Source: a virus
Virus record (IMG/VR): IMGVR_UViG_3300033149_006357
Location: 13,080-77,079 of that record
Length of the DNA: 64,000 nucleotides
Strand: one strand, 5' to 3'
Each line of letters opens with the position of its first letter. Position 1 is the first letter of the stretch. The translations under genes were made by a program, and so were the position numbers. Below the pieces are notes generated by a model, which did no database searches, was not told the origin of the DNA, and worked only from the letters and a program-made list of their open reading frames with translations. Of this stretch, positions 1-8,986 are shown piece by piece.

Positions 1-135
1 ACCCTGGAAGAACTGGTCGAACAGGGCATCGTCCCATCCGACTACCGGGTCTTCGACAGCAACGGGAATGAAGTTGCTTCCGACGAGGAGGTGACCGGCG
101 ACCTGGTTGCCGCGCCCGTTACCAAGAACGCCTAA
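1..135 (+). CDS. C-terminal part of a small ubiquitin-like (beta-grasp) protein, 5'-truncated by the window edge
   Basis: Not in the ORF track. Frame 1 reads TLEELVEQGIVPSDYRVFDSNGNEVASDEEVTGDLVAAPVTKNA*. The helix, strand, 'NG', 'GD'+strand, short-tail pattern fits a beta-grasp C-half, and it lies directly upstream of the E2, JAB and E1 genes. Confidence 0.6.
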   Translation, partial: TLEELVEQGIVPSDYRVFDSNGNEVASDEEVTGDLVAAPVTKNA

Positions 136-141
136 GTAAGC

Positions 142-167
142 AGGGCGGGTCAATGGCGACCCGCCCT
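142..167 (+). promoter_or_regulatory. GC-rich stem-loop between the Ubl and E2-like genes
   Basis: Perfect 10-bp inverted repeat AGGGCGGGTC-aatggc-GACCCGCCCT with no U-tract. Confidence 0.55.
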
Positions 168-182
168 CATCGAGGTATTATC

Positions 183-806
183 ATGTATGCACTTGCAGAT
201 TCTGAATCTACCCTGGAGGCGATGGTAAGCGGTGAATGGGAAGATAAGGGGGTGTTCTTTGTCGCCAACGTCTTCCCAGAAGACCCAGACGGGCATGTGC
301 ATCAGCACATTATGGGCATCGCCCTGGGCGCTAAGTTTTTGTTCTCCCAATGGTGTTATCGAGAGCAGCACCCGCACCGCGCGAGCGACCGGTGCTTGTG
401 CATCGGTTCAGGGGCGACTCACGCGCGACTTCTTATCGATCGCGGTCACCTCACGCAGGCAATCGCGCTTGTCATCCGGCACCTCAACGAGGTGAACCTG
501 GAAGATTGCTACAATCCCTACGATGAGTTCAGCCCGTGCTCGAATTGCGGCTTGTATACGTCCACGCCGCACAAATGCAATGGATGCGGGGATTACTTTT
601 GTGACAATTGCATGGAAGGCGACTATTGCCTGACATGCATAGAATATGTCTGCCCGGAATGCGGGATATACGATCCGAACACGTGCATATTGTGCGGCCA
701 AACGCACTGCACATGCGGATACAGCGAGTGCGTGTGCTCGGCCCGTTTTCCGGATTACGAAATGATGGTGGAGGTCTTGAAAGATCATGGCATTGAGATA
801 CATTGA
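183..806 (+). CDS. E2-like (UBC-fold) conjugating enzyme fused to a Cys-rich Zn-binding region
   Basis: HPH-x(5)-CLCIG resembles the E2 HPN...CL motif and is followed by helices. The C-terminus has 6 CxxC and 2 CxC motifs. Start moved to ATG183 because GAGGT lies upstream and ATG153 sits inside the hairpin. Confidence 0.6.
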   Translation: MYALADSESTLEAMVSGEWEDKGVFFVANVFPEDPDGHVHQHIMGIALGAKFLFSQWCYREQHPHRASDRCLCIGSGATHARLLIDRGHLTQAIALVIRHLNEVNLEDCYNPYDEFSPCSNCGLYTSTPHKCNGCGDYFCDNCMEGDYCLTCIEYVCPECGIYDPNTCILCGQTHCTCGYSECVCSARFPDYEMMVEVLKDHGIEIH

Positions 807-1443
807 GGAAGCAGCGCCGACAAAATTGATCGTCACCGATAATGTAGCACACAAGATCGCGGTGCTCATGGCATCCGAGCCGAACGTGGAAATCGGCGGC
901 GCTGGATACGTGGAAGGCAACGAATGGACGCGCATCTGGTGCGGTACTACAGAGGCCAGCGTCGGCGAACACGAGATGTCCGCCGAGTCATTGGCCAACA
1001 TCACGATGGAAGCCCTGAAGGCCGGATTGAAGCCCGCAGGGCTCAGATTGTACTGGCATACACATGGCGTCCATGGATTTGCCCCATCGTTTTCGCAGGT
1101 GGATTGGGACACAATCTATAAGCAAGCATCCCACGGGCTAAGGATCGTCAACGTCGTGTTTGGGGGTCTCACCAAATATGATGCGGTCGAGGCATGGAAA
1201 ATCACGCCCGCAAGATATGTGGTGCGCAATGTAGAACTAGAATGGAGGCTGAGAGATGATAAGGGTTATTGGGATTGGGCATCTCGGTTCCTGGACGGCA
1301 CTGGCATTAGAAAGAAGAGGATGCCAGGTGTCAGTCTGGGATATGGACACGGTGGAGCCGCGCAATCTCCCGGTGTCCCCGTACACAAAGGACCAGGTTG
1401 GCCTTTTGAAGATAGAGGCGATTGGTCAGCTTGGGACCTTTGA
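787..1443 (+). CDS. JAB/MPN+ (JAMM) metallopeptidase
   Basis: N-terminal catalytic E (NVEIGG) and WHTH...FSQVD, matching the JAMM HxH...SxxD motif. Confidence 0.8.
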   Translation: MALRYIEEAAPTKLIVTDNVAHKIAVLMASEPNVEIGGAGYVEGNEWTRIWCGTTEASVGEHEMSAESLANITMEALKAGLKPAGLRLYWHTHGVHGFAPSFSQVDWDTIYKQASHGLRIVNVVFGGLTKYDAVEAWKITPARYVVRNVELEWRLRDDKGYWDWASRFLDGTGIRKKRMPGVSLGYGHGGAAQSPGVPVHKGPGWPFEDRGDWSAWDL

Positions 1444-1795
1444 GACCAATGGGATGTGGATGGGAAACCCGCTGGACGGGATCGTGATATGCGCCGTCGA
1501 TAACAACACGACCAGACAGCGCATCCGGGAGGCCACGGATGGGATCTTCATCGACGTGAGGTCTGCAGGAAAGTTTTGCGAGGTCTTCTGTCTGGATGGA
1601 TCCCCAGAAAAAGAGGCCAGATGGGATGCGTCATTCAGTGGCGTAATGGCGAGCGACGGGTGCGGGTCGTTCGCGTCTTCTGGCCTGTGGGTCGCATCCG
1701 TTGTGGCGGACATGATAGACGACATCCAGGAAGGGAAAAGTGTACCCGCCCATATCATGAGAACAGGATACGGAGTGATCCAATGGAAGCCTTGA
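1256..1795 (+). CDS. ThiF/MoeB/E1-family adenylyltransferase
   Basis: VIGIGHLGS (GxGxxG), DMDTVEPRNL, conserved K, AVDNxxxR, candidate catalytic Cys in DGC. GGAGG RBS at 1244-1248. Confidence 0.9.
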   Translation: MIRVIGIGHLGSWTALALERRGCQVSVWDMDTVEPRNLPVSPYTKDQVGLLKIEAIGQLGTFETNGMWMGNPLDGIVICAVDNNTTRQRIREATDGIFIDVRSAGKFCEVFCLDGSPEKEARWDASFSGVMASDGCGSFASSGLWVASVVADMIDDIQEGKSVPAHIMRTGYGVIQWKP

Positions 1796-1866
1796 TCATA
1801 CTGATCGGAATTGGAGTGTGGATTATCGGGTTGGCGATCATACACGAGGTGTTCGATGAACGTTAG
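1783..1866 (+). CDS. small single-TM protein
   Basis: MEALIILIGIGVWIIGLAIIHEVFDER, with a GGAG RBS; overlaps the E1 stop. Confidence 0.5.
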   Translation: MEALIILIGIGVWIIGLAIIHEVFDER

Positions 1867-2107
1867 AATCGCTTTCATGGAGAAGGAAAGCGCCGTCGAA
1901 TTCGGTCCGGATGACGAGATTGACAGATCGCAGATCCGGGTACACGCGTCCATATTTCTCGGACATCTGAGCAGTCTCGACATCCCGCGCAAGTTTCACG
2001 GGTCGTTTCGGCTTCAGGAATGGAAGGACCACTTCCAGGAAAGAGCCGGATACGACCCATATCCCGATGCCGACGGCGACGAGATGTGCTTTTTCGCTCT
2101 GACATAG
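1856..2107 (+). CDS. hypothetical protein
   Basis: Coupled ORF with a GAGGT RBS. Confidence 0.55.
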   Translation: MNVRIAFMEKESAVEFGPDDEIDRSQIRVHASIFLGHLSSLDIPRKFHGSFRLQEWKDHFQERAGYDPYPDADGDEMCFFALT

Positions 2108-2115
2108 GAGGCAGG

Positions 2116-2337
2116 ATGTACAGGCCATTGATTGTGCTCGATCGTGGCAAGCTGATTGCATACGACATCCGCGATGGGAAAAAGGTCGTCCCGGTGCCGG
2201 AGCAGATGCAGTGGATGAAATTGCTATGCTTTCCCAAAGCATTCTGTCCCGCGCACCTGGATTGGGACGGAGACCTACCGAGGGCGGTGTGGGTTATCAG
2301 TGAGCTTCACGGTCTCGGAAGAAGGCTGTGTAGATGA
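2116..2337 (+). CDS. hypothetical protein
   Basis: AGGAGG RBS before ATG2116. Confidence 0.6.
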   Translation: MYRPLIVLDRGKLIAYDIRDGKKVVPVPEQMQWMKLLCFPKAFCPAHLDWDGDLPRAVWVISELHGLGRRLCR

Positions 2338-2528
2338 ACACGTTTATCGTAGATGGAAAGGAGTACGGGGTCAAGGATGGAAAGTGTGTTCACGGAGAAG
2401 GGGACGAGATACAATCCGTGAGACACACCGGATACGGGATGTTCATTCTTGTGAACAACGCATGGTATCAAGTGCTCAGATATTATAACGGGATAGCATG
2501 CAAAAGAGTGGATTCAAAACGCAACTGA
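2334..2528 (+). CDS. hypothetical protein
   Basis: ATGA overlap with the preceding gene; ends just before a terminator. Confidence 0.6.
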   Translation: MNTFIVDGKEYGVKDGKCVHGEGDEIQSVRHTGYGMFILVNNAWYQVLRYYNGIACKRVDSKRN

Positions 2529-2532
2529 CCAG

Positions 2533-2563
2533 GATGGGGGCGATTCGCCCCCATCATTTTTTT
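2533..2563 (+). terminator. intrinsic terminator
   Basis: GATGGGGGCG-att-CGCCCCCATC followed by A and T7. Confidence 0.85.
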
Positions 2564-2612
2564 ATCGTCCATGCAAACCGGACGCAGAAACGCAGACTAT
2601 CGGAGATGTAAG

Positions 2613-3668
2613 ATGATATTGGTAACAGGAGACTGGCACATCAGGGACAAAGAAGGGCTGGATGCACTTGACCGAGTTATCCAAGTGGCGTATAATAGAC
2701 GGCCCGACCTGGTTGCGGTATGTGGGGATGTGTTCCACTCATCGCGGCCGGGCAGCGAGATGGAGAAAGAGGTAGCCAGGCGATTGAAAGAGCTGTCGAA
2801 AATGTGCCCCGTGGTTGGCGTGAGCGGCAACCATGATTCTACATCGAGAGCCGCCGCGACGGACACGATGGATATCCTCTCGCCCTCCATATCCATCGCA
2901 TCGGCCCCGAGGATAGTACAGGCCAGGGGATACTATATCGTCTGCATCCCCTGGCTGAGACCGAATCAAATCCTCGCAAACGAGCCCCGCCTGCAGCGCA
3001 ACGCTGCAAACGCAAAGCTTGCATCTACTGTCGAGGCTATGGTAACAGGATATCTCACGGATGCCCCGGATGGCGCAGTAAAAGTGCTCATAGCACATTG
3101 TACCACCCTCGGAGCGGATTATGGCGGGTACATCCCGACATCCCTTGGCGGGGAGCTGATCTGGAACACAGATTGGTTCTCCGGCTACGATGTCGTTTGT
3201 CTCGGACACATCCACAAAGCACAGATCGTAGCGCCAAATGCCGCGTACTGCGGCAGCACCTATCGCAATACCATCGCCGAGAGGGATGTGCCAAAAGGCG
3301 TCTACATATGGGATGGCAAGTGGGAATGGGAGCCGATCTGGGCGCGCCCGATGTACCTGGTAGAAGGGACGCCAGATGAGGTCGAGATTCAGGTCGCTAC
3401 GCTACCAGATGGCGCAGACGTGCAGGTCAGGGTACAACTGCAGCCACATGACGACTGGTACGGGATGGATGGGTCCAGGTTCCACAAGTTCCAGGTTCAC
3501 CAGGTCATCGAGCGGGAGGGCCGGCCGTTCGCGCAAGATCCCTGGCAATCGATGAGCGTGCCAGAGGCGCTGAGGAGGTACTTTGAGATCATCGGAAAGG
3601 AGGAAAGCGAGATCGACCTACTTATGTCCGCATTCGCAAAACTGGAGGAGTCCAAAAATGGACAATAA
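2613..3668 (+). CDS. sbcD: Mre11/SbcD-like metallophosphoesterase nuclease
   Basis: GDWH, GDVFH, GNHD, AH and LGHIH motifs, YCGS...E...KG, and an SbcD-like C-terminal region. Confidence 0.85.
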   Translation: MILVTGDWHIRDKEGLDALDRVIQVAYNRRPDLVAVCGDVFHSSRPGSEMEKEVARRLKELSKMCPVVGVSGNHDSTSRAAATDTMDILSPSISIASAPRIVQARGYYIVCIPWLRPNQILANEPRLQRNAANAKLASTVEAMVTGYLTDAPDGAVKVLIAHCTTLGADYGGYIPTSLGGELIWNTDWFSGYDVVCLGHIHKAQIVAPNAAYCGSTYRNTIAERDVPKGVYIWDGKWEWEPIWARPMYLVEGTPDEVEIQVATLPDGADVQVRVQLQPHDDWYGMDGSRFHKFQVHQVIEREGRPFAQDPWQSMSVPEALRRYFEIIGKEESEIDLLMSAFAKLEESKNGQ

Positions 3669-4131
3669 AAAGACATGTCCCGTATGTGGGTATCGGGGAT
3701 ACAAACGACATCGCGGGAAATATTGTCCCGAATGTGGCGCCCGGTTGTACATCTACAAGCCGAAAAAGAAAGACAAGCCTTCCGTGTGGGTGGCCGAGGA
3801 GAAAAATCTGGGCGAACTTGTGGATGCGCTGGAAAGATACATCGCATCGGAATACGTTATCCCAAGATTCAGGTTTTCAAATCGCCTGCCAGAACTCGCG
3901 ATGGCACGCACGCTGTACGAAAAGTGCAATTTCAATCAGAGCCTGGCCCTGCTTGTCATACGCAGGTACTTCACAACAAGCAGGAAGATAATATGGTATA
4001 GACCCAAGTCGATGGCGCAAGTCCTGTGGGATAACTCGCAGGGCGGGTGCTTCAGCACCGCGCTATCGCTGGCAAAAATGGATCACGCAAACGTGATCCA
4101 GAATCTAGAACAAGTAAAGGAGATGATATGA
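3658..4131 (+). CDS. Zn-ribbon protein
   Basis: CPVC...CPEC motifs; GGAGG RBS. Confidence 0.65.
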   Translation: MDNKKTCPVCGYRGYKRHRGKYCPECGARLYIYKPKKKDKPSVWVAEEKNLGELVDALERYIASEYVIPRFRFSNRLPELAMARTLYEKCNFNQSLALLVIRRYFTTSRKIIWYRPKSMAQVLWDNSQGGCFSTALSLAKMDHANVIQNLEQVKEMI

Positions 4132-5165
4132 TCAGGGTAGACGGATCGGATTTCAAAACGATCCTGAAGGCCGCAATCGCCGGCCTGAGCAGGCGCGCCG
4201 CCGGCGACGCATCCAAGGTCAGGCTGAGAGCGACGGACGACATCATCGAGGCAAATGGCATGGACTACGAGCTCTACATCAAGGCAAGGGCGATGTGCCG
4301 GACGCCCGGGGATTCGTTGAACATACTTGTGCCGCCGGAGATCGTATACACGATCGGCGATGGCGAGACAACGCTGATGCTGGATGACACGACGCTCATC
4401 GTACAAAGCAATGGTACGGCAAGGTTCCCGACGGAAGCGCCGACAGACTACCCGGCCATCGAGGGCATCATCGGGCAGAACATCCCGCTTTCAAAGCAAG
4501 ACCTCAAGCCGCTTATCGCGGCGGCAAAAACCAACTCCGGGATGCTGAGGGACAGATGCATCCATATCCGGTCGAAAGACGAAATGGTATACTTTGGCAC
4601 GACATACTCAGCCGTAAGGTTTTGCATCGTTCAAAAAGAGTACAATAGCAATGTCCCCATATCGGCGATGTGCGAGATCGCTCTGATCAACAGGGCGATG
4701 GCGGCCATAAATGGCAACGTCGTCCTATCGGATGACGCATGCGCCGTTGTCTCGGACAGGGGGCTTGCCAGGTTTCCGACAAGCGACACGTCATCGATCA
4801 TGCTGACAGAGAATGTGGCGGGCCTCCAACCGCAGTTTTACTGGTCTGCGCCGGATGACATGATCGACGCCCTGCAGATCGCGCACGAGATCGGAGCCCA
4901 AATCGCAGAGTTCTCGTACAAGGCCGGACAAGTCGAAATGGTATGCAGCGGGAATACATCGTATCACAGGGCGTTTCCGGCACAATCCGACGAGCCATTC
5001 GAGGGCATGGTCAGCGTAAACGACCTGCTCATAGCCGTAAAACACGTCGGCGTAGACAAAATCGGCATGATCCCCAACACTTCCACGGAAGACACATTGT
5101 ACAACTGGAAGATCGGAGGGGATGACACATTTTTCTTGTTGTTACCTTTCAGGAGGAAAGCATGA
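4128..5165 (+). CDS. dnaN: divergent DNA polymerase III beta sliding clamp-like protein
   Basis: About 345 aa, N-terminal 'F..ILKAA', linker FPTEAPTDYPAI (cf. DFP/DYP), C-terminal FLLLPFR (cf. YLIMPMR). Confidence 0.65.
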   Translation: MIRVDGSDFKTILKAAIAGLSRRAAGDASKVRLRATDDIIEANGMDYELYIKARAMCRTPGDSLNILVPPEIVYTIGDGETTLMLDDTTLIVQSNGTARFPTEAPTDYPAIEGIIGQNIPLSKQDLKPLIAAAKTNSGMLRDRCIHIRSKDEMVYFGTTYSAVRFCIVQKEYNSNVPISAMCEIALINRAMAAINGNVVLSDDACAVVSDRGLARFPTSDTSSIMLTENVAGLQPQFYWSAPDDMIDALQIAHEIGAQIAEFSYKAGQVEMVCSGNTSYHRAFPAQSDEPFEGMVSVNDLLIAVKHVGVDKIGMIPNTSTEDTLYNWKIGGDDTFFLLLPFRRKA

Positions 5166-6253
5166 GCACAGAAGGAAGAATCGTATCGCGTTCGCCAGTG
5201 CACGTCATCAGCCAGAATGACGTGTGGATCAACACCGATCCGGCAGCCGGTGAGGTGTACGAGATCGAGCGACGAAAGATCAATAGCAGGTGGGTTCCAG
5301 TATACGCATTGTCAAAGCTCGCCCTTGACAAGCTTCTGGTGGCCGCCGGCATCAAGCAGAAAGAATCCGTGGTCGAAGAGCTCCGGCCAAACGTATGGAA
5401 GGCAAAGTTCGTCGGCGAATGGGAACAACCGGACGGCACGCAAATCGAGCTCGAGGCCACAAAGGTGATCGATCTGACCATCGGCGGGCCAAGATACACG
5501 GAGAGATACCAAAAAGAGGTCGACAACCTGCTATCGAAATACGCCGCAGATCGCGGCATCAACAGAAGGCAAGACGAAACGCGCGATCAATGGTTCGGGC
5601 GCGTCCGGTATCACCTGCACAAGCAGGATCCGGACATCCTGGACGAGATAGACTTTATCGCAGCCGAGGTCGCAAAACGCACCACGCAAAAGGCTGCCCA
5701 GTTCGGAGCCGAGCTCGCCGAGACCGGGGCGATCAACAGGGCCATCCGGACACTGCTCCAGATCGGGACATATACCAAAGAGTACCTGGATAACAACCCG
5801 ATTACCGTTTACCGATCCCAGATCGACTGGGAAGCGGCGAGAAACCTGCTCGGAGAGGAATACACAAAGTCCGTTATCGCGGGGATGGTGCAGCAAAACC
5901 TCGGCGTCGATAGCGTAGAGATGCTGTCCCTCGATGCGCCAGAAGAGGAAGAACCATCCATCTGGGAGGCCACCATCCAGAAGGAGCAGGAACTGTCGAT
6001 CAAGGCATACTATGCAGACAGGGACGATAAAGACCCGGACGAGATGACGCAAGCCCTGTTTGGCAAAAACGTGTCGGAGCTCACGGACGGGGAAGCGCGA
6101 CTGACGCTGCTTGCCCTGGATGAGCTGGAACACGATGCGTCTTCTGGGGGCGACAGGGTAGAGTTTTTCAATCATTTAAGGGGGGTTATTCGCAAATGCG
6201 CAGGCGAAAGAAGGATCCCGGATAAGGAAGAACTATGGCAAATGAACTTCTAA
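5162..6253 (+). CDS. hypothetical protein, possible ssDNA-annealing/recombination protein
   Basis: AETGAINRAIR...YTKEYL resembles the helix of Rad52-like annealases; acidic C-terminal region; recombination-gene context. Confidence 0.45.
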   Translation: MSTEGRIVSRSPVHVISQNDVWINTDPAAGEVYEIERRKINSRWVPVYALSKLALDKLLVAAGIKQKESVVEELRPNVWKAKFVGEWEQPDGTQIELEATKVIDLTIGGPRYTERYQKEVDNLLSKYAADRGINRRQDETRDQWFGRVRYHLHKQDPDILDEIDFIAAEVAKRTTQKAAQFGAELAETGAINRAIRTLLQIGTYTKEYLDNNPITVYRSQIDWEAARNLLGEEYTKSVIAGMVQQNLGVDSVEMLSLDAPEEEEPSIWEATIQKEQELSIKAYYADRDDKDPDEMTQALFGKNVSELTDGEARLTLLALDELEHDASSGGDRVEFFNHLRGVIRKCAGERRIPDKEELWQMNF

Positions 6254-7674: not shown

Positions 7675-7704
7675 ATACGGGGGAGGTCTAGGCCTCCCCC
7701 GTAT
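7675..7704. terminator. stem-loop at the convergence of the + and - gene blocks
   Basis: ATACGGGGGAGG...CCTCCCCCGTAT, a 12-bp perfect stem between convergent stops. Confidence 0.65.
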
Positions 7705-8986
7705 ACACTTTCCCATCCCAAATCGCTATGCCATCTATGGATATCGGGGTAATGGCATAGTGATCATCGTCATAATCTATTACCGCAAAGCCCTGTTGCC
7801 AGTTTTGCGATGCGCTTGTCCCGGGCACGATTCCATCCACCCTGCATAGACACCCAGGGCAAAAACCCTCTATCACAACTGGGCCATCTTTCCCATACAG
7901 CGTCTTTGATACCCACTCCCTGCGATGGGCATGCCCAAATATCTCCGAGACCACAGACGATTCGATCTTTGCGCGTGCTGTACCACCTATGGTGGACGAC
8001 ACCACATCCCCGTGGCTAAGCCTTACCCTGTTTCCAAGGAGGCTCATTTCGTCGGGGTAGTCGCCAACCCAATCCACCTTGAGCTTGTGCAATGCAAGCA
8101 ACCTCGGGACGCTGATCGATGGCGGCAAGTCTAGTTCGTCTACAGATTTCAAGCCATAAGCTACCGCAAAATGCTCCATCAAAATGGACCTCAGCCTGCG
8201 CTCATGGTTTCCTTCATACAGCCTGATCTGCGCATTCGGCAACATGTCCCTCAGCGTCTTGAGAAAAGCGTGCGCGGCCAACAGGCTCTTTTGCGTCTGA
8301 TATTGATACTCTGGCGTGCGCACAAACTTTGTCGTCCAGTCTGTCAAATCGAGCAGATCCCCGAGGATATCCACGCGATCTGGCCTTGCGTCTCTTGCCA
8401 CGCTGAGCGCGATACGCAAAGCGCTCTCGTCGTGCAATGGCTCGTCTATCCTGTACCCAAAGTGCATATCTGCCAGCACGAGCGATCGGCGTAAACCAGT
8501 ATGCTTTGGCAACGGAGCATCGTAGGTTACGTCGCACTCTATCGGAACAAGCACCGGCATGAGAGGTACGGGGACTTTGCGAACAAACTGAGCATGCACA
8601 CTCCAAAGTTGCACGCTCTCGATTCCGTTTTTGTTGACGTACCCACTCTCTATCCTGCCGTCTTCCCACCGCAGATCCACCCTCTCGTTCTTTGCCCACC
8701 CAGGATACGCCTTTATTTCATACTTGACTACTTTCCACACATCCAGGTCGACATTTGCGGCCTCGATGAGCTCGTCCAGCGTCTTCACCAGGCACGACGC
8801 CTCGGCGTAGTTTCCAGACTCGACCCACCTCGCCGGCGACTTGTCTTTCAGGCGCTTGTACTTGTTTTTACATGCGTCTTTGCTGCGACCTATACGCCTC
8901 CCGATCTGGGAAAACGGCATGCCCGCATTGCGCAGCGTCAATAACTCATCTATTTCGCTTTGAGTCCACTCTATGGTGTCGGCCAT
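7688..8986 (-). CDS. HTH/Myb-like domain plus calcineurin-like metallophosphoesterase
   Basis: N-terminal WT..E...L...IGRS..AC..KY; then DMH, GDLLD, GNHE, HGD and GHAH motifs. Confidence 0.85.
   Translation of the reverse strand: MADTIEWTQSEIDELLTLRNAGMPFSQIGRRIGRSKDACKNKYKRLKDKSPARWVESGNYAEASCLVKTLDELIEAANVDLDVWKVVKYEIKAYPGWAKNERVDLRWEDGRIESGYVNKNGIESVQLWSVHAQFVRKVPVPLMPVLVPIECDVTYDAPLPKHTGLRRSLVLADMHFGYRIDEPLHDESALRIALSVARDARPDRVDILGDLLDLTDWTTKFVRTPEYQYQTQKSLLAAHAFLKTLRDMLPNAQIRLYEGNHERRLRSILMEHFAVAYGLKSVDELDLPPSISVPRLLALHKLKVDWVGDYPDEMSLLGNRVRLSHGDVVSSTIGGTARAKIESSVVSEIFGHAHRREWVSKTLYGKDGPVVIEGFCPGCLCRVDGIVPGTSASQNWQQGFAVIDYDDDHYAITPISIDGIAIWDGKVYTGEA

Follow-up and report, generated by a model that had tools for sequence, protein, structure and literature searches.

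A putative compact ubiquitin-like conjugation cassette of a tailed phage

The examples of ubiquitin-like conjugation known to date in prokaryotes come from defence systems of bacteria (Type II CBASS, Bil and Bub), and four-gene kits like the one below have been studied only as defences of bacteria against phages. Here, we describe a four-gene operon at the start of a 64,000-nucleotide stretch of viral DNA, referred to below as the window (bases 13080-77079 of the 77,079-bp IMG/VR record IMGVR_UViG_3300033149_006357). Its four tightly packed plus-strand genes encode, in this order, a ubiquitin-like protein (Ubl, here also called the tag), an E2-like protein, a JAB peptidase and an E1-like enzyme. 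Sequence comparisons and predicted structures suggest that they form a compact ubiquitin-like conjugation cassette of a tailed phage, probably a functional one, with a zinc-finger adaptor built into its E2. The analysis establishes the identities of the genes, and the steps of the mechanism set out below are inferred from them. The operon belongs to an apparently uncatalogued family that is present in Planctomycetota genomes and in other uncultured viral contigs. In the literature searched, neither this family nor a complete cascade on a phage was described, although Burroughs et al. 2011 (PMC5938088) may contain an earlier description of the family. With a complete cascade on phage genomes, ubiquitin-like chemistry would also be at work on the viral side of the conflict.

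Four genes in a compact operon

The IMG/VR record carries direct terminal repeats, and PHROG scans identified genes for TerL, the portal, the major head protein and the tape measure on a minus-strand block. The record therefore appears to be the genome of a complete tailed phage, and the description of the operon as phage-encoded in the original prediction, which had been made from the letters of the window, holds. The features of the operon are as follows (window coordinates).

-54 to 135 (L001:1447-1635), plus strand: whole tag (Ubl) gene, 62 amino acids; the window holds its 3′ two-thirds (1-135)
183-536, alternative start 153, plus strand: N-terminal E2 (ubiquitin-conjugating, UBC)-like core of open reading frame 2 (ORF2); HPH at 369-377, codon of Cys83 at 399-401 (numbering from 153)
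537-806, plus strand: C-terminal Cys array and terminal helix of ORF2; C129 to C195, about 16 Cys, roughly four predicted Zn sites
787-1443, plus strand: JAMM/JAB metallopeptidase, 218 amino acids; overlaps ORF2 by 20 nucleotides, and its last 62 codons overlap E1
1244-1248, plus strand: GGAGG, the putative ribosome-binding site for E1, inside the JAB ORF, read from the sequence
1256-1795, plus strand: minimal ThiF/E1-type adenylating enzyme, 179 amino acids, assigned by Pfam ThiF and the family profile
1256-1443, plus strand: JAB tail and E1 N-terminus read in two frames, 188 nucleotides, from the sequence and the family alignment

The edge of the window cuts the tag ORF, and the gene starts 54 nucleotides upstream of it. 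Translation of ORF2 most likely begins at ATG 183, which has a GAGG 7 nucleotides upstream and yields the 207-residue product of the gene caller (P0001); position 153 is the alternative. The E1 frame is closed by a TGA at 1250-1252, just upstream of the ATG at 1256, and E1 has its own GGAGG; it therefore starts independently within the JAB ORF, with an overlap of 188 nucleotides. In this overlap the E1 frame encodes the Rossmann motif and the JAB frame encodes W164, which aligns with a family-invariant Trp, and the stretch 1256-1443 thus appears to be coding in both frames. A JAB-E1 fusion produced by frameshifting was also considered, and was rejected because the TGA at 1250 shuts the E1 frame, E1 has a GGAGG of its own and the JAB frame keeps the invariant Trp. 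In one bacterial operon of the family (L016) the JAB/E1 overlap is apparently just a few nucleotides long.

Every phage protein is shorter than its relatives: 207-217 against about 350 amino acids for the E2, 179 against about 217 for the E1, and 62 against 74 for the tag. With 62 + 207 + 218 + 179 amino acids, the phage operon is the smallest version among those compared here, and this small size makes it attractive for reconstitution and structural work.

The E2-like protein and its cysteine array

ORF2 has no sequence match in Pfam, PHROG, PADLOC or the PDB, and neither ORF2 nor 78 of its relatives match the Pfam UQ_con and Prok-E2 models. Word-index homologue searches with ORF2 and with the phage E1 each retrieved the query only. 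Pattern scans of IMG/VR with the phage E1 and with the ORF2 relatives P0003 and P0004 gave no matches, and the sole match of the A1 scan (L002) was rejected, being an unrelated protein with the zinc finger in common. When 1.8 billion representatives were searched in full with HMMER, two distant relatives of ORF2 did come up, and a profile built from these led to more than 160 proteins of about 350 amino acids, mostly from Planctomycetota. Across 78 sequences of this family, no variation was seen at H73, P74, H75 or C83, nor in a series of CxxC pairs. The motif in the phage protein is H73-P74-H75-x7-C83, in which C83 is the second, family-invariant Cys of a ‘CLC’.

Structure prediction for the family relies on a homologue, whose E2 core was modelled by AlphaFold2 with 74 aligned cores including that of the phage (alignment A4), reaching a pLDDT of 85.8 and a pTM of 0.81. 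When this model was compared with the PDB by Foldseek, all of the approximately 50 hits listed were ubiquitin-conjugating enzymes, the best being Ubc13 (5vnz_E; E=2.3e-3, probability 0.99, TM 0.46, 145 columns). In a VIA search, which does not depend on Foldseek, the top hit was UBE2S (Z 6.4, with 124 residues aligned at an rmsd of 4.4), and Citrobacter BubB (Z 4.9) was among the E2, UEV and RWD chains that came next; with Z values of this middling size, what counts is how uniform the list of hits is.

Profile comparison points in the same direction. For hhalign, the reference profile was made of 23 genuine UQ_con E2 domains encoded by Planctomycetota, and the ORF2 family aligned with them at 87.9% probability (E=3.2e-6). 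In this alignment THPHV..LCxGD falls on FHPNI..VCxGD, so that HPH matches HPN and the invariant Cys takes the position of the catalytic one, and YNPxSPY is paired with YNVKSPL. A phage-proximal profile of three sequences gave the same register weakly (probability 10%, E=0.003). A language-model search pointed to UQ_con and E2-CBASS clusters and was taken as a lead only. From the sequence alignments and the models, we conclude that ORF2 most probably belongs to a divergent E2 family.

The second half of ORF2 is rich in Cys. The first eight Cys of the array follow the pattern CX2C-X9-CX2C-X4-CX2C-X5-CX2C, which is conserved in the family, and the CxxC pairs are invariant or nearly so. A profile of the array weakly matches ZZ (0.002), B-box (0.0028) and TFIIH p44 (0.0038) entries in the PDB. 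For the zinc part of the phage ORF2 model, Foldseek returned FYVE, RING and PHD fingers with E-values of 0.18-1 and probabilities of up to 0.98, and weak matches to the Pfam families Prok-RING_2 and B-box were seen in relatives. In predicted structure and in sequence, the array thus resembles the cross-brace fingers of the RING, B-box, ZZ and FYVE type, and we infer an E3-like or adaptor role for it. An E2-zinc-finger family of this kind would provide a prokaryotic E2-E3 fusion, bearing on the origin of RING-dependent ubiquitination.

Some bacterial loci (L044:1967-3721, L010:298-1980 and L027:838-2466) hold a second, larger paralogue of the Cys-rich E2-like protein (540-585 amino acids); its gene is found upstream of the operon, at a distance of a few kb, together with repeated families of small uncharacterised proteins.

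The tag, the peptidase and the minimal E1

The original prediction had worked with the truncated tag and had called for the upstream sequence, which was recovered and gives the full 62-residue gene. The phage tag matches Pfam SAMP2 marginally (E=0.045), a relative matches ThiS at 0.0018, and the profile of the tag family matches MoaD at 0.031 and ThiS at 0.074. An Atlas model of exactly the phage tag (pLDDT 0.75) superposes on ThiS, MoaD and SAMP2 clusters at TM 0.70-0.79 over 59-61 of the 62 residues, a comparison of a short protein with predicted models on both sides. This superposition supports a beta-grasp fold of the ThiS/MoaD type for the tag. The tag also aligns with the 74-residue Ubl whose gene precedes the E2 gene in related operons.

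The end of the mature tag can be addressed in part by comparison. The phage tag stops at the conserved Ala of the family, with Asn in place of Gly, and several relatives stop exactly at GA. A metagenome locus (L117:909-1394) contains a gene for two Ubls joined head to tail, with the junction ...KIEGA-A-KLLFINN, which resembles a polyubiquitin-like precursor and bears on the position of the JAB cut. Because of the relatives that stop at GA and of this junction, the mature end in the family may be Gly or Gly-Ala.

The third gene (787-1443) appears to encode a JAMM/JAB peptidase. Its direct matches are PADLOC JAB (E=1.2e-4) and Pfam Prok-JAB (13.4 bits, below the cut-off), and relatives score about 25 bits on the latter, at the cut-off. 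The JAMM motif of the phage protein reads E35...H91-x-H93...S101...D106; E35, H91, H93 and S101 are invariant in an alignment of 51 JAB sequences, and D106 is read from the sequence. The best solved relative of the family profile is the Caldiarchaeum Rpn11-like protein 6fjv (E=3e-4), followed by Rpn11.

The fourth gene (1256-1795) encodes a minimal ThiF-type E1. The protein scores 30.2 bits on Pfam ThiF (PF00899; gathering cut-off 28.1), and homologous E1s of 217-260 amino acids score 81-92 bits. In PADLOC it matches the Cap2-type E1-E2 (2.3e-7) and, over residues 4-44 only, BilD (0.0022). In alignment A5, which comprises the phage E1 and 59 relatives from related operons, G6/G8/G11 of the GxGxxG nucleotide loop, D29, D31, N37, K52, D82, R87, D100 and R102 are invariant across all 60 sequences. 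Against the PDB, the family profile finds ThiF (1e-16), Uba5, UBA6/7/1, MoeB, MccB and BubCD. A complex prediction for the phage E1 and tag lends weak support to their pairing with a score of 0.54 against 0.25 for the best control; for comparison, 58 of 80 solved complexes and 2 of 110 mismatched pairs reach this mark, and those that reach it with a score of 0.60 or below are only 7 of the 80 solved complexes but include both passing mismatches. Contact agreement between the E1-tag runs was at least 84%, with a pLDDT of 80-81 for the tag and about 91 for E1. Since ThiF-ThiS and MoeB-MoaD complexes have already been solved, this score may reflect likeness to them rather than binding.

These resemblances raise the question of whether the four genes constitute a sulfur carrier system instead, in which ThiS/MoaD-ThiF-type proteins with JAB processing would form a thiocarboxylate on the tag for a cofactor, thionucleoside or small-molecule pathway. 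The E1 is indeed a single domain of ThiF size, with ThiF and MoeB among its best solved relatives, and the nearest neighbours of the tag in structure and sequence are ThiS, MoaD and SAMP2. However, the gene between tag and JAB always codes for a UBC-like protein in which one Cys is invariant, the tag has no Gly-Gly end, and neither a rhodanese nor a cysteine desulfurase nor a biosynthetic enzyme was found among the phage or conserved bacterial neighbours scanned. We therefore regard a sulfur carrier as highly improbable; a sulfur relay had been set aside from the start, on account of the E2-like gene and of the lack of a sulfur-pathway enzyme nearby, and that judgement stands.

In the conjugation cascade that we favour, the E1, presumably as a homodimer, would adenylate the C-terminal carboxylate of the 62-residue tag and may carry it in thioester linkage to C136. 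The tag would then pass to Cys83 of the UBC-like E2, 7 residues past the HPH that replaces the classical HPN. The zinc array fused to the E2 would serve as a built-in E3 or substrate adaptor, directing transfer to target lysines, and the JAB peptidase would take the tag off again. In relatives, JAB would also trim the variable 0-13 residues after ...KIEGA; the phage tag, whose last residue is already the conserved Ala, would not have to be trimmed.

Several observations weigh against such a cascade in the phage. Its tag ends in ...PVTKNA, without Gly-Gly or a C-terminal glycine, whereas the tags of relatives read ...TPTKIEGA followed by 0-13 variable residues, at least 90% of them ending in ...Gly-Ala plus tail where the phage has Asn-Ala. 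We know of no case in which a Ubl with an Asn-Ala-type end is activated. The phage E1 begins at the first Rossmann strand and thus lacks the N-terminal R..RQ segment of at least 90% of its relatives; a segment of this type in MoeB and ThiF carries an ATP-contacting arginine. The original prediction of a ThiF/E1 with a free Cys was right in its first part, the ThiF match being above the cut-off, but the free Cys (C136) is offset by one residue, preceding the column in which the family has its nearly invariant Cys. Similarly, the HPH...C(L)C motif of the E2-like protein stood, with the second Cys as the presumed catalytic one, and a UBC fold is supported for the homologue core but not directly for the phage protein, of which AlphaFold2 modelled only residues 70-190 with confidence, leaving residues 1-69 at a pLDDT below 50. 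Because these 69 residues are modelled poorly, a UBC fold in the short N-terminal part of phage ORF2 is suggested by the homologues and by the retained motif. Finally, PADLOC, including its Bil models, gave no match for ORF2, for the 44-residue Ubl fragment in the window or for the homologous E2 of L016.

A tag without Gly, an E1 without the R..RQ helix and an offset Cys leave room for a non-conjugating role as decoy or eraser. On this alternative the cassette has decayed or been repurposed: the JAB might strip a Bil-like tag of the host off phage proteins, or an inert tag and a crippled E1 might sequester host enzymes. The shortness of all four proteins relative to their relatives and the presence of homologous operons in bacterial genomes are further points in its favour. 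Yet the four ORFs are intact and have translational coupling signals; HPH and Cys83, the JAMM motif, and the nucleotide-binding and Asp/Arg residues of E1 are all kept; and a decoy would not need all four genes. The alternative also presupposes a homologous system in the host. In a search for this host, the phage's major head protein had matches in only 2 of 301 Planctomycetota genomes, and these are weak. Decay or repurposing is thus unlikely in our view, though it deserves serious attention.

If the conjugation cascade does operate, phages may run a writer and eraser system of their own, with E2 and E3 in one protein, that tags host or phage proteins during infection, whether for takeover, for control of assembly or for countering tagging-based immunity. 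It would be a minimal cascade in which an Asn-Ala tag and a helix-less E1 of 179 amino acids suffice. We put this wider proposal forward tentatively, as somewhat less likely than not.

Known systems, distribution and genomic setting

The closest known system is the bacterial ISG15-like BilABCD (Types I and II), which consists of four genes in the order Ubl-E2-JAB-E1 and has no separate E3 gene (PMC11601596; 10.1101/2023.09.04.556158; PMC10557695). The phage operon has the same four-gene order and likewise no separate E3 gene; a further parallel lies in the short C-terminal overhangs of some Ubl relatives, which have to be trimmed. In contrast, the Bil E1 has roughly 450 amino acids in an IAD-AAD-CYS arrangement, where the phage E1 is a single adenylation domain; the E2 belongs to another sequence family and bears the C-terminal zinc-finger array; and the single ThiS-like tag of 62-74 amino acids ends in GA (NA in the phage), whereas the Bil Ubl ends in a conserved Gly, which its E1 adenylates. 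In addition, Bil is a bacterial defence, and the cassette described here is carried by a phage. In PADLOC, the homologous Ubl has a weak TmtA match only. By analogy the cassette would work like Bil, but it is not a member, because it lacks the large IAD-AAD-CYS E1, a PADLOC match for its E2 and a tag that ends in Gly.

Other systems share parts of this architecture. The eukaryote-like ubiquitin operon of Caldiarchaeum subterraneum (PMC5654768) brings a Ubl together with E1, E2, a small RING-type zinc finger and a JAMM peptidase, and its Rpn11-like protein is, among solved structures, the closest to the JAB family; there, however, the RING is a protein of its own and E2 and E1 match the classical families, whereas the phage operon has its fingers as part of a divergent E2 and an E1 of ThiF size. 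Bub (6E/DUF6527) operons (PMC11601596) also comprise bacterial Ubl, E2, E1 and JAB-type parts, and BubB and BubCD are among the matches noted above. Bub differs in its Ser/Tyr oxyesters, its Ubl-E2 and JAB-E1 fusions and its DUF6527 serine protease, whereas the phage operon has a conserved E2 Cys and separate genes, with no DUF6527 seen. The UQ_con (PF00179) E2s of Planctomycetota share with the ORF2 family the signature HP[NH]-[IV]-x4-[ILV]-C-x-G-D followed by YNxxSP; the ORF2 family differs in having no PF00179 match and in adding the Cys array and, in bacteria, a coiled N-terminal region. Classical UQ_con E2 domains (FHPNI...C) occur above the Pfam cut-off in 38 of 301 Planctomycetota genomes (L087-L111), and they appear to belong to a separate ubiquitin-like system in the same phylum.

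The distribution of the operon family was surveyed by a pattern scan with one genome per GTDB species, which returned 95 relatives of the E2 family, from which 80 loci were kept. The carriers are nearly all Planctomycetota (Phycisphaerae, Pirellulales and Planctomycetaceae), with a few from PVC or doubtful bins. All four genes, in the order tag-E2-JAB-E1, were detected in 59 of the 80 bacterial loci; one or more were missing from the other 21, several of which are short contigs. The parts list of four tightly coupled genes put forward in the original prediction is thus upheld by the co-oriented ORFs and by folds, profiles and conserved synteny. Among 301 evenly sampled Planctomycetota genomes, the E2 core was found in 11, at 1-6 copies each, and one 10-Mb genome holds seven copies. 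The family is therefore patchy and multi-copy in Planctomycetota, a spread that points to a mobile system. Six metagenome loci from JGI also contain the same operon.

A spread of this kind, in 11 of the 301 genomes and with up to seven copies, is typical of mobile defence genes, and the gene order is that of BilABCD (PMC11601596). Both fit another reading, in which the cassette is a phage-borne defence or superinfection-exclusion module directed at competing phages, as Bil is for bacteria, and not at takeover of the host. On the other side, the operon lies among replication genes and not in a moron-like position, no known defence regulators were seen, and no lysogeny gene was seen near the operon, where no search was aimed at such genes. 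We consider an exclusion module quite improbable; in chemistry it would be the same as the conjugation cassette favoured here, from which it differs in its target only.

A survey of synteny in other phages had also been proposed, and it was productive: four other IMG/VR contigs (52-191 kb, one of them with terminal repeats) carry all four genes. In these contigs the neighbours of the operon include an RNA ligase, a Sak4-like protein, a methyltransferase, a transposase and an HNH endonuclease. Neither the TerL family phrog_2 nor the phage's major head protein was found in any of the four, and they are therefore not close relatives of the phage. In one of them, an HNH endonuclease gene (L083:4137-4823; phrog_374, 3e-68) is inserted between JAB and E1, and RNA ligase genes follow E1 in this contig and in L085. 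The operon has a gene for a classical AAA ATPase (PF00004; phrog_8638, E 1e-81 to 1e-123; for example L077:1427-2923 and L084:15150-16727) on its upstream side in about 14 bacterial loci, and in the viral contig L084 this gene comes 4.5 kb downstream; a tblastn search found this AAA+ ATPase to be absent from the phage. The bacterial loci and the phage have no neighbouring genes in common beyond the operon itself.

Among GenBank phages, megablast gave no match to positions 1-6000 of the window, and tblastn gave no protein-level match either to phage ORF2 or to a Planctomycete homologue. Within the phage genome, the operon opens a plus-strand block, in which genes for an SbcD-like nuclease, a zinc-ribbon protein, a sliding-clamp-like protein and methyltransferases follow. 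Judged from these gene assignments, the cassette appears to sit among the early and replication genes of the phage. Other features of this region are listed here (window coordinates).

2571-3668, plus strand: SbcD-like metallophosphoesterase (phrog_100)
7688-8986, minus strand: second metallophosphoesterase (phrog_20266, 6e-41)
4047-5165: sliding-clamp-like protein, 2.3 kb downstream of the operon (phrog_947, DNA polymerase processivity factor, E=1.7e-5)
1783-1866, plus strand: hydrophobic ORF of 27 codons that overlaps the E1 stop, with a single predicted membrane helix, read from the sequence

The two metallophosphoesterase genes (2571-3668 and 7688-8986) flank the replication block.

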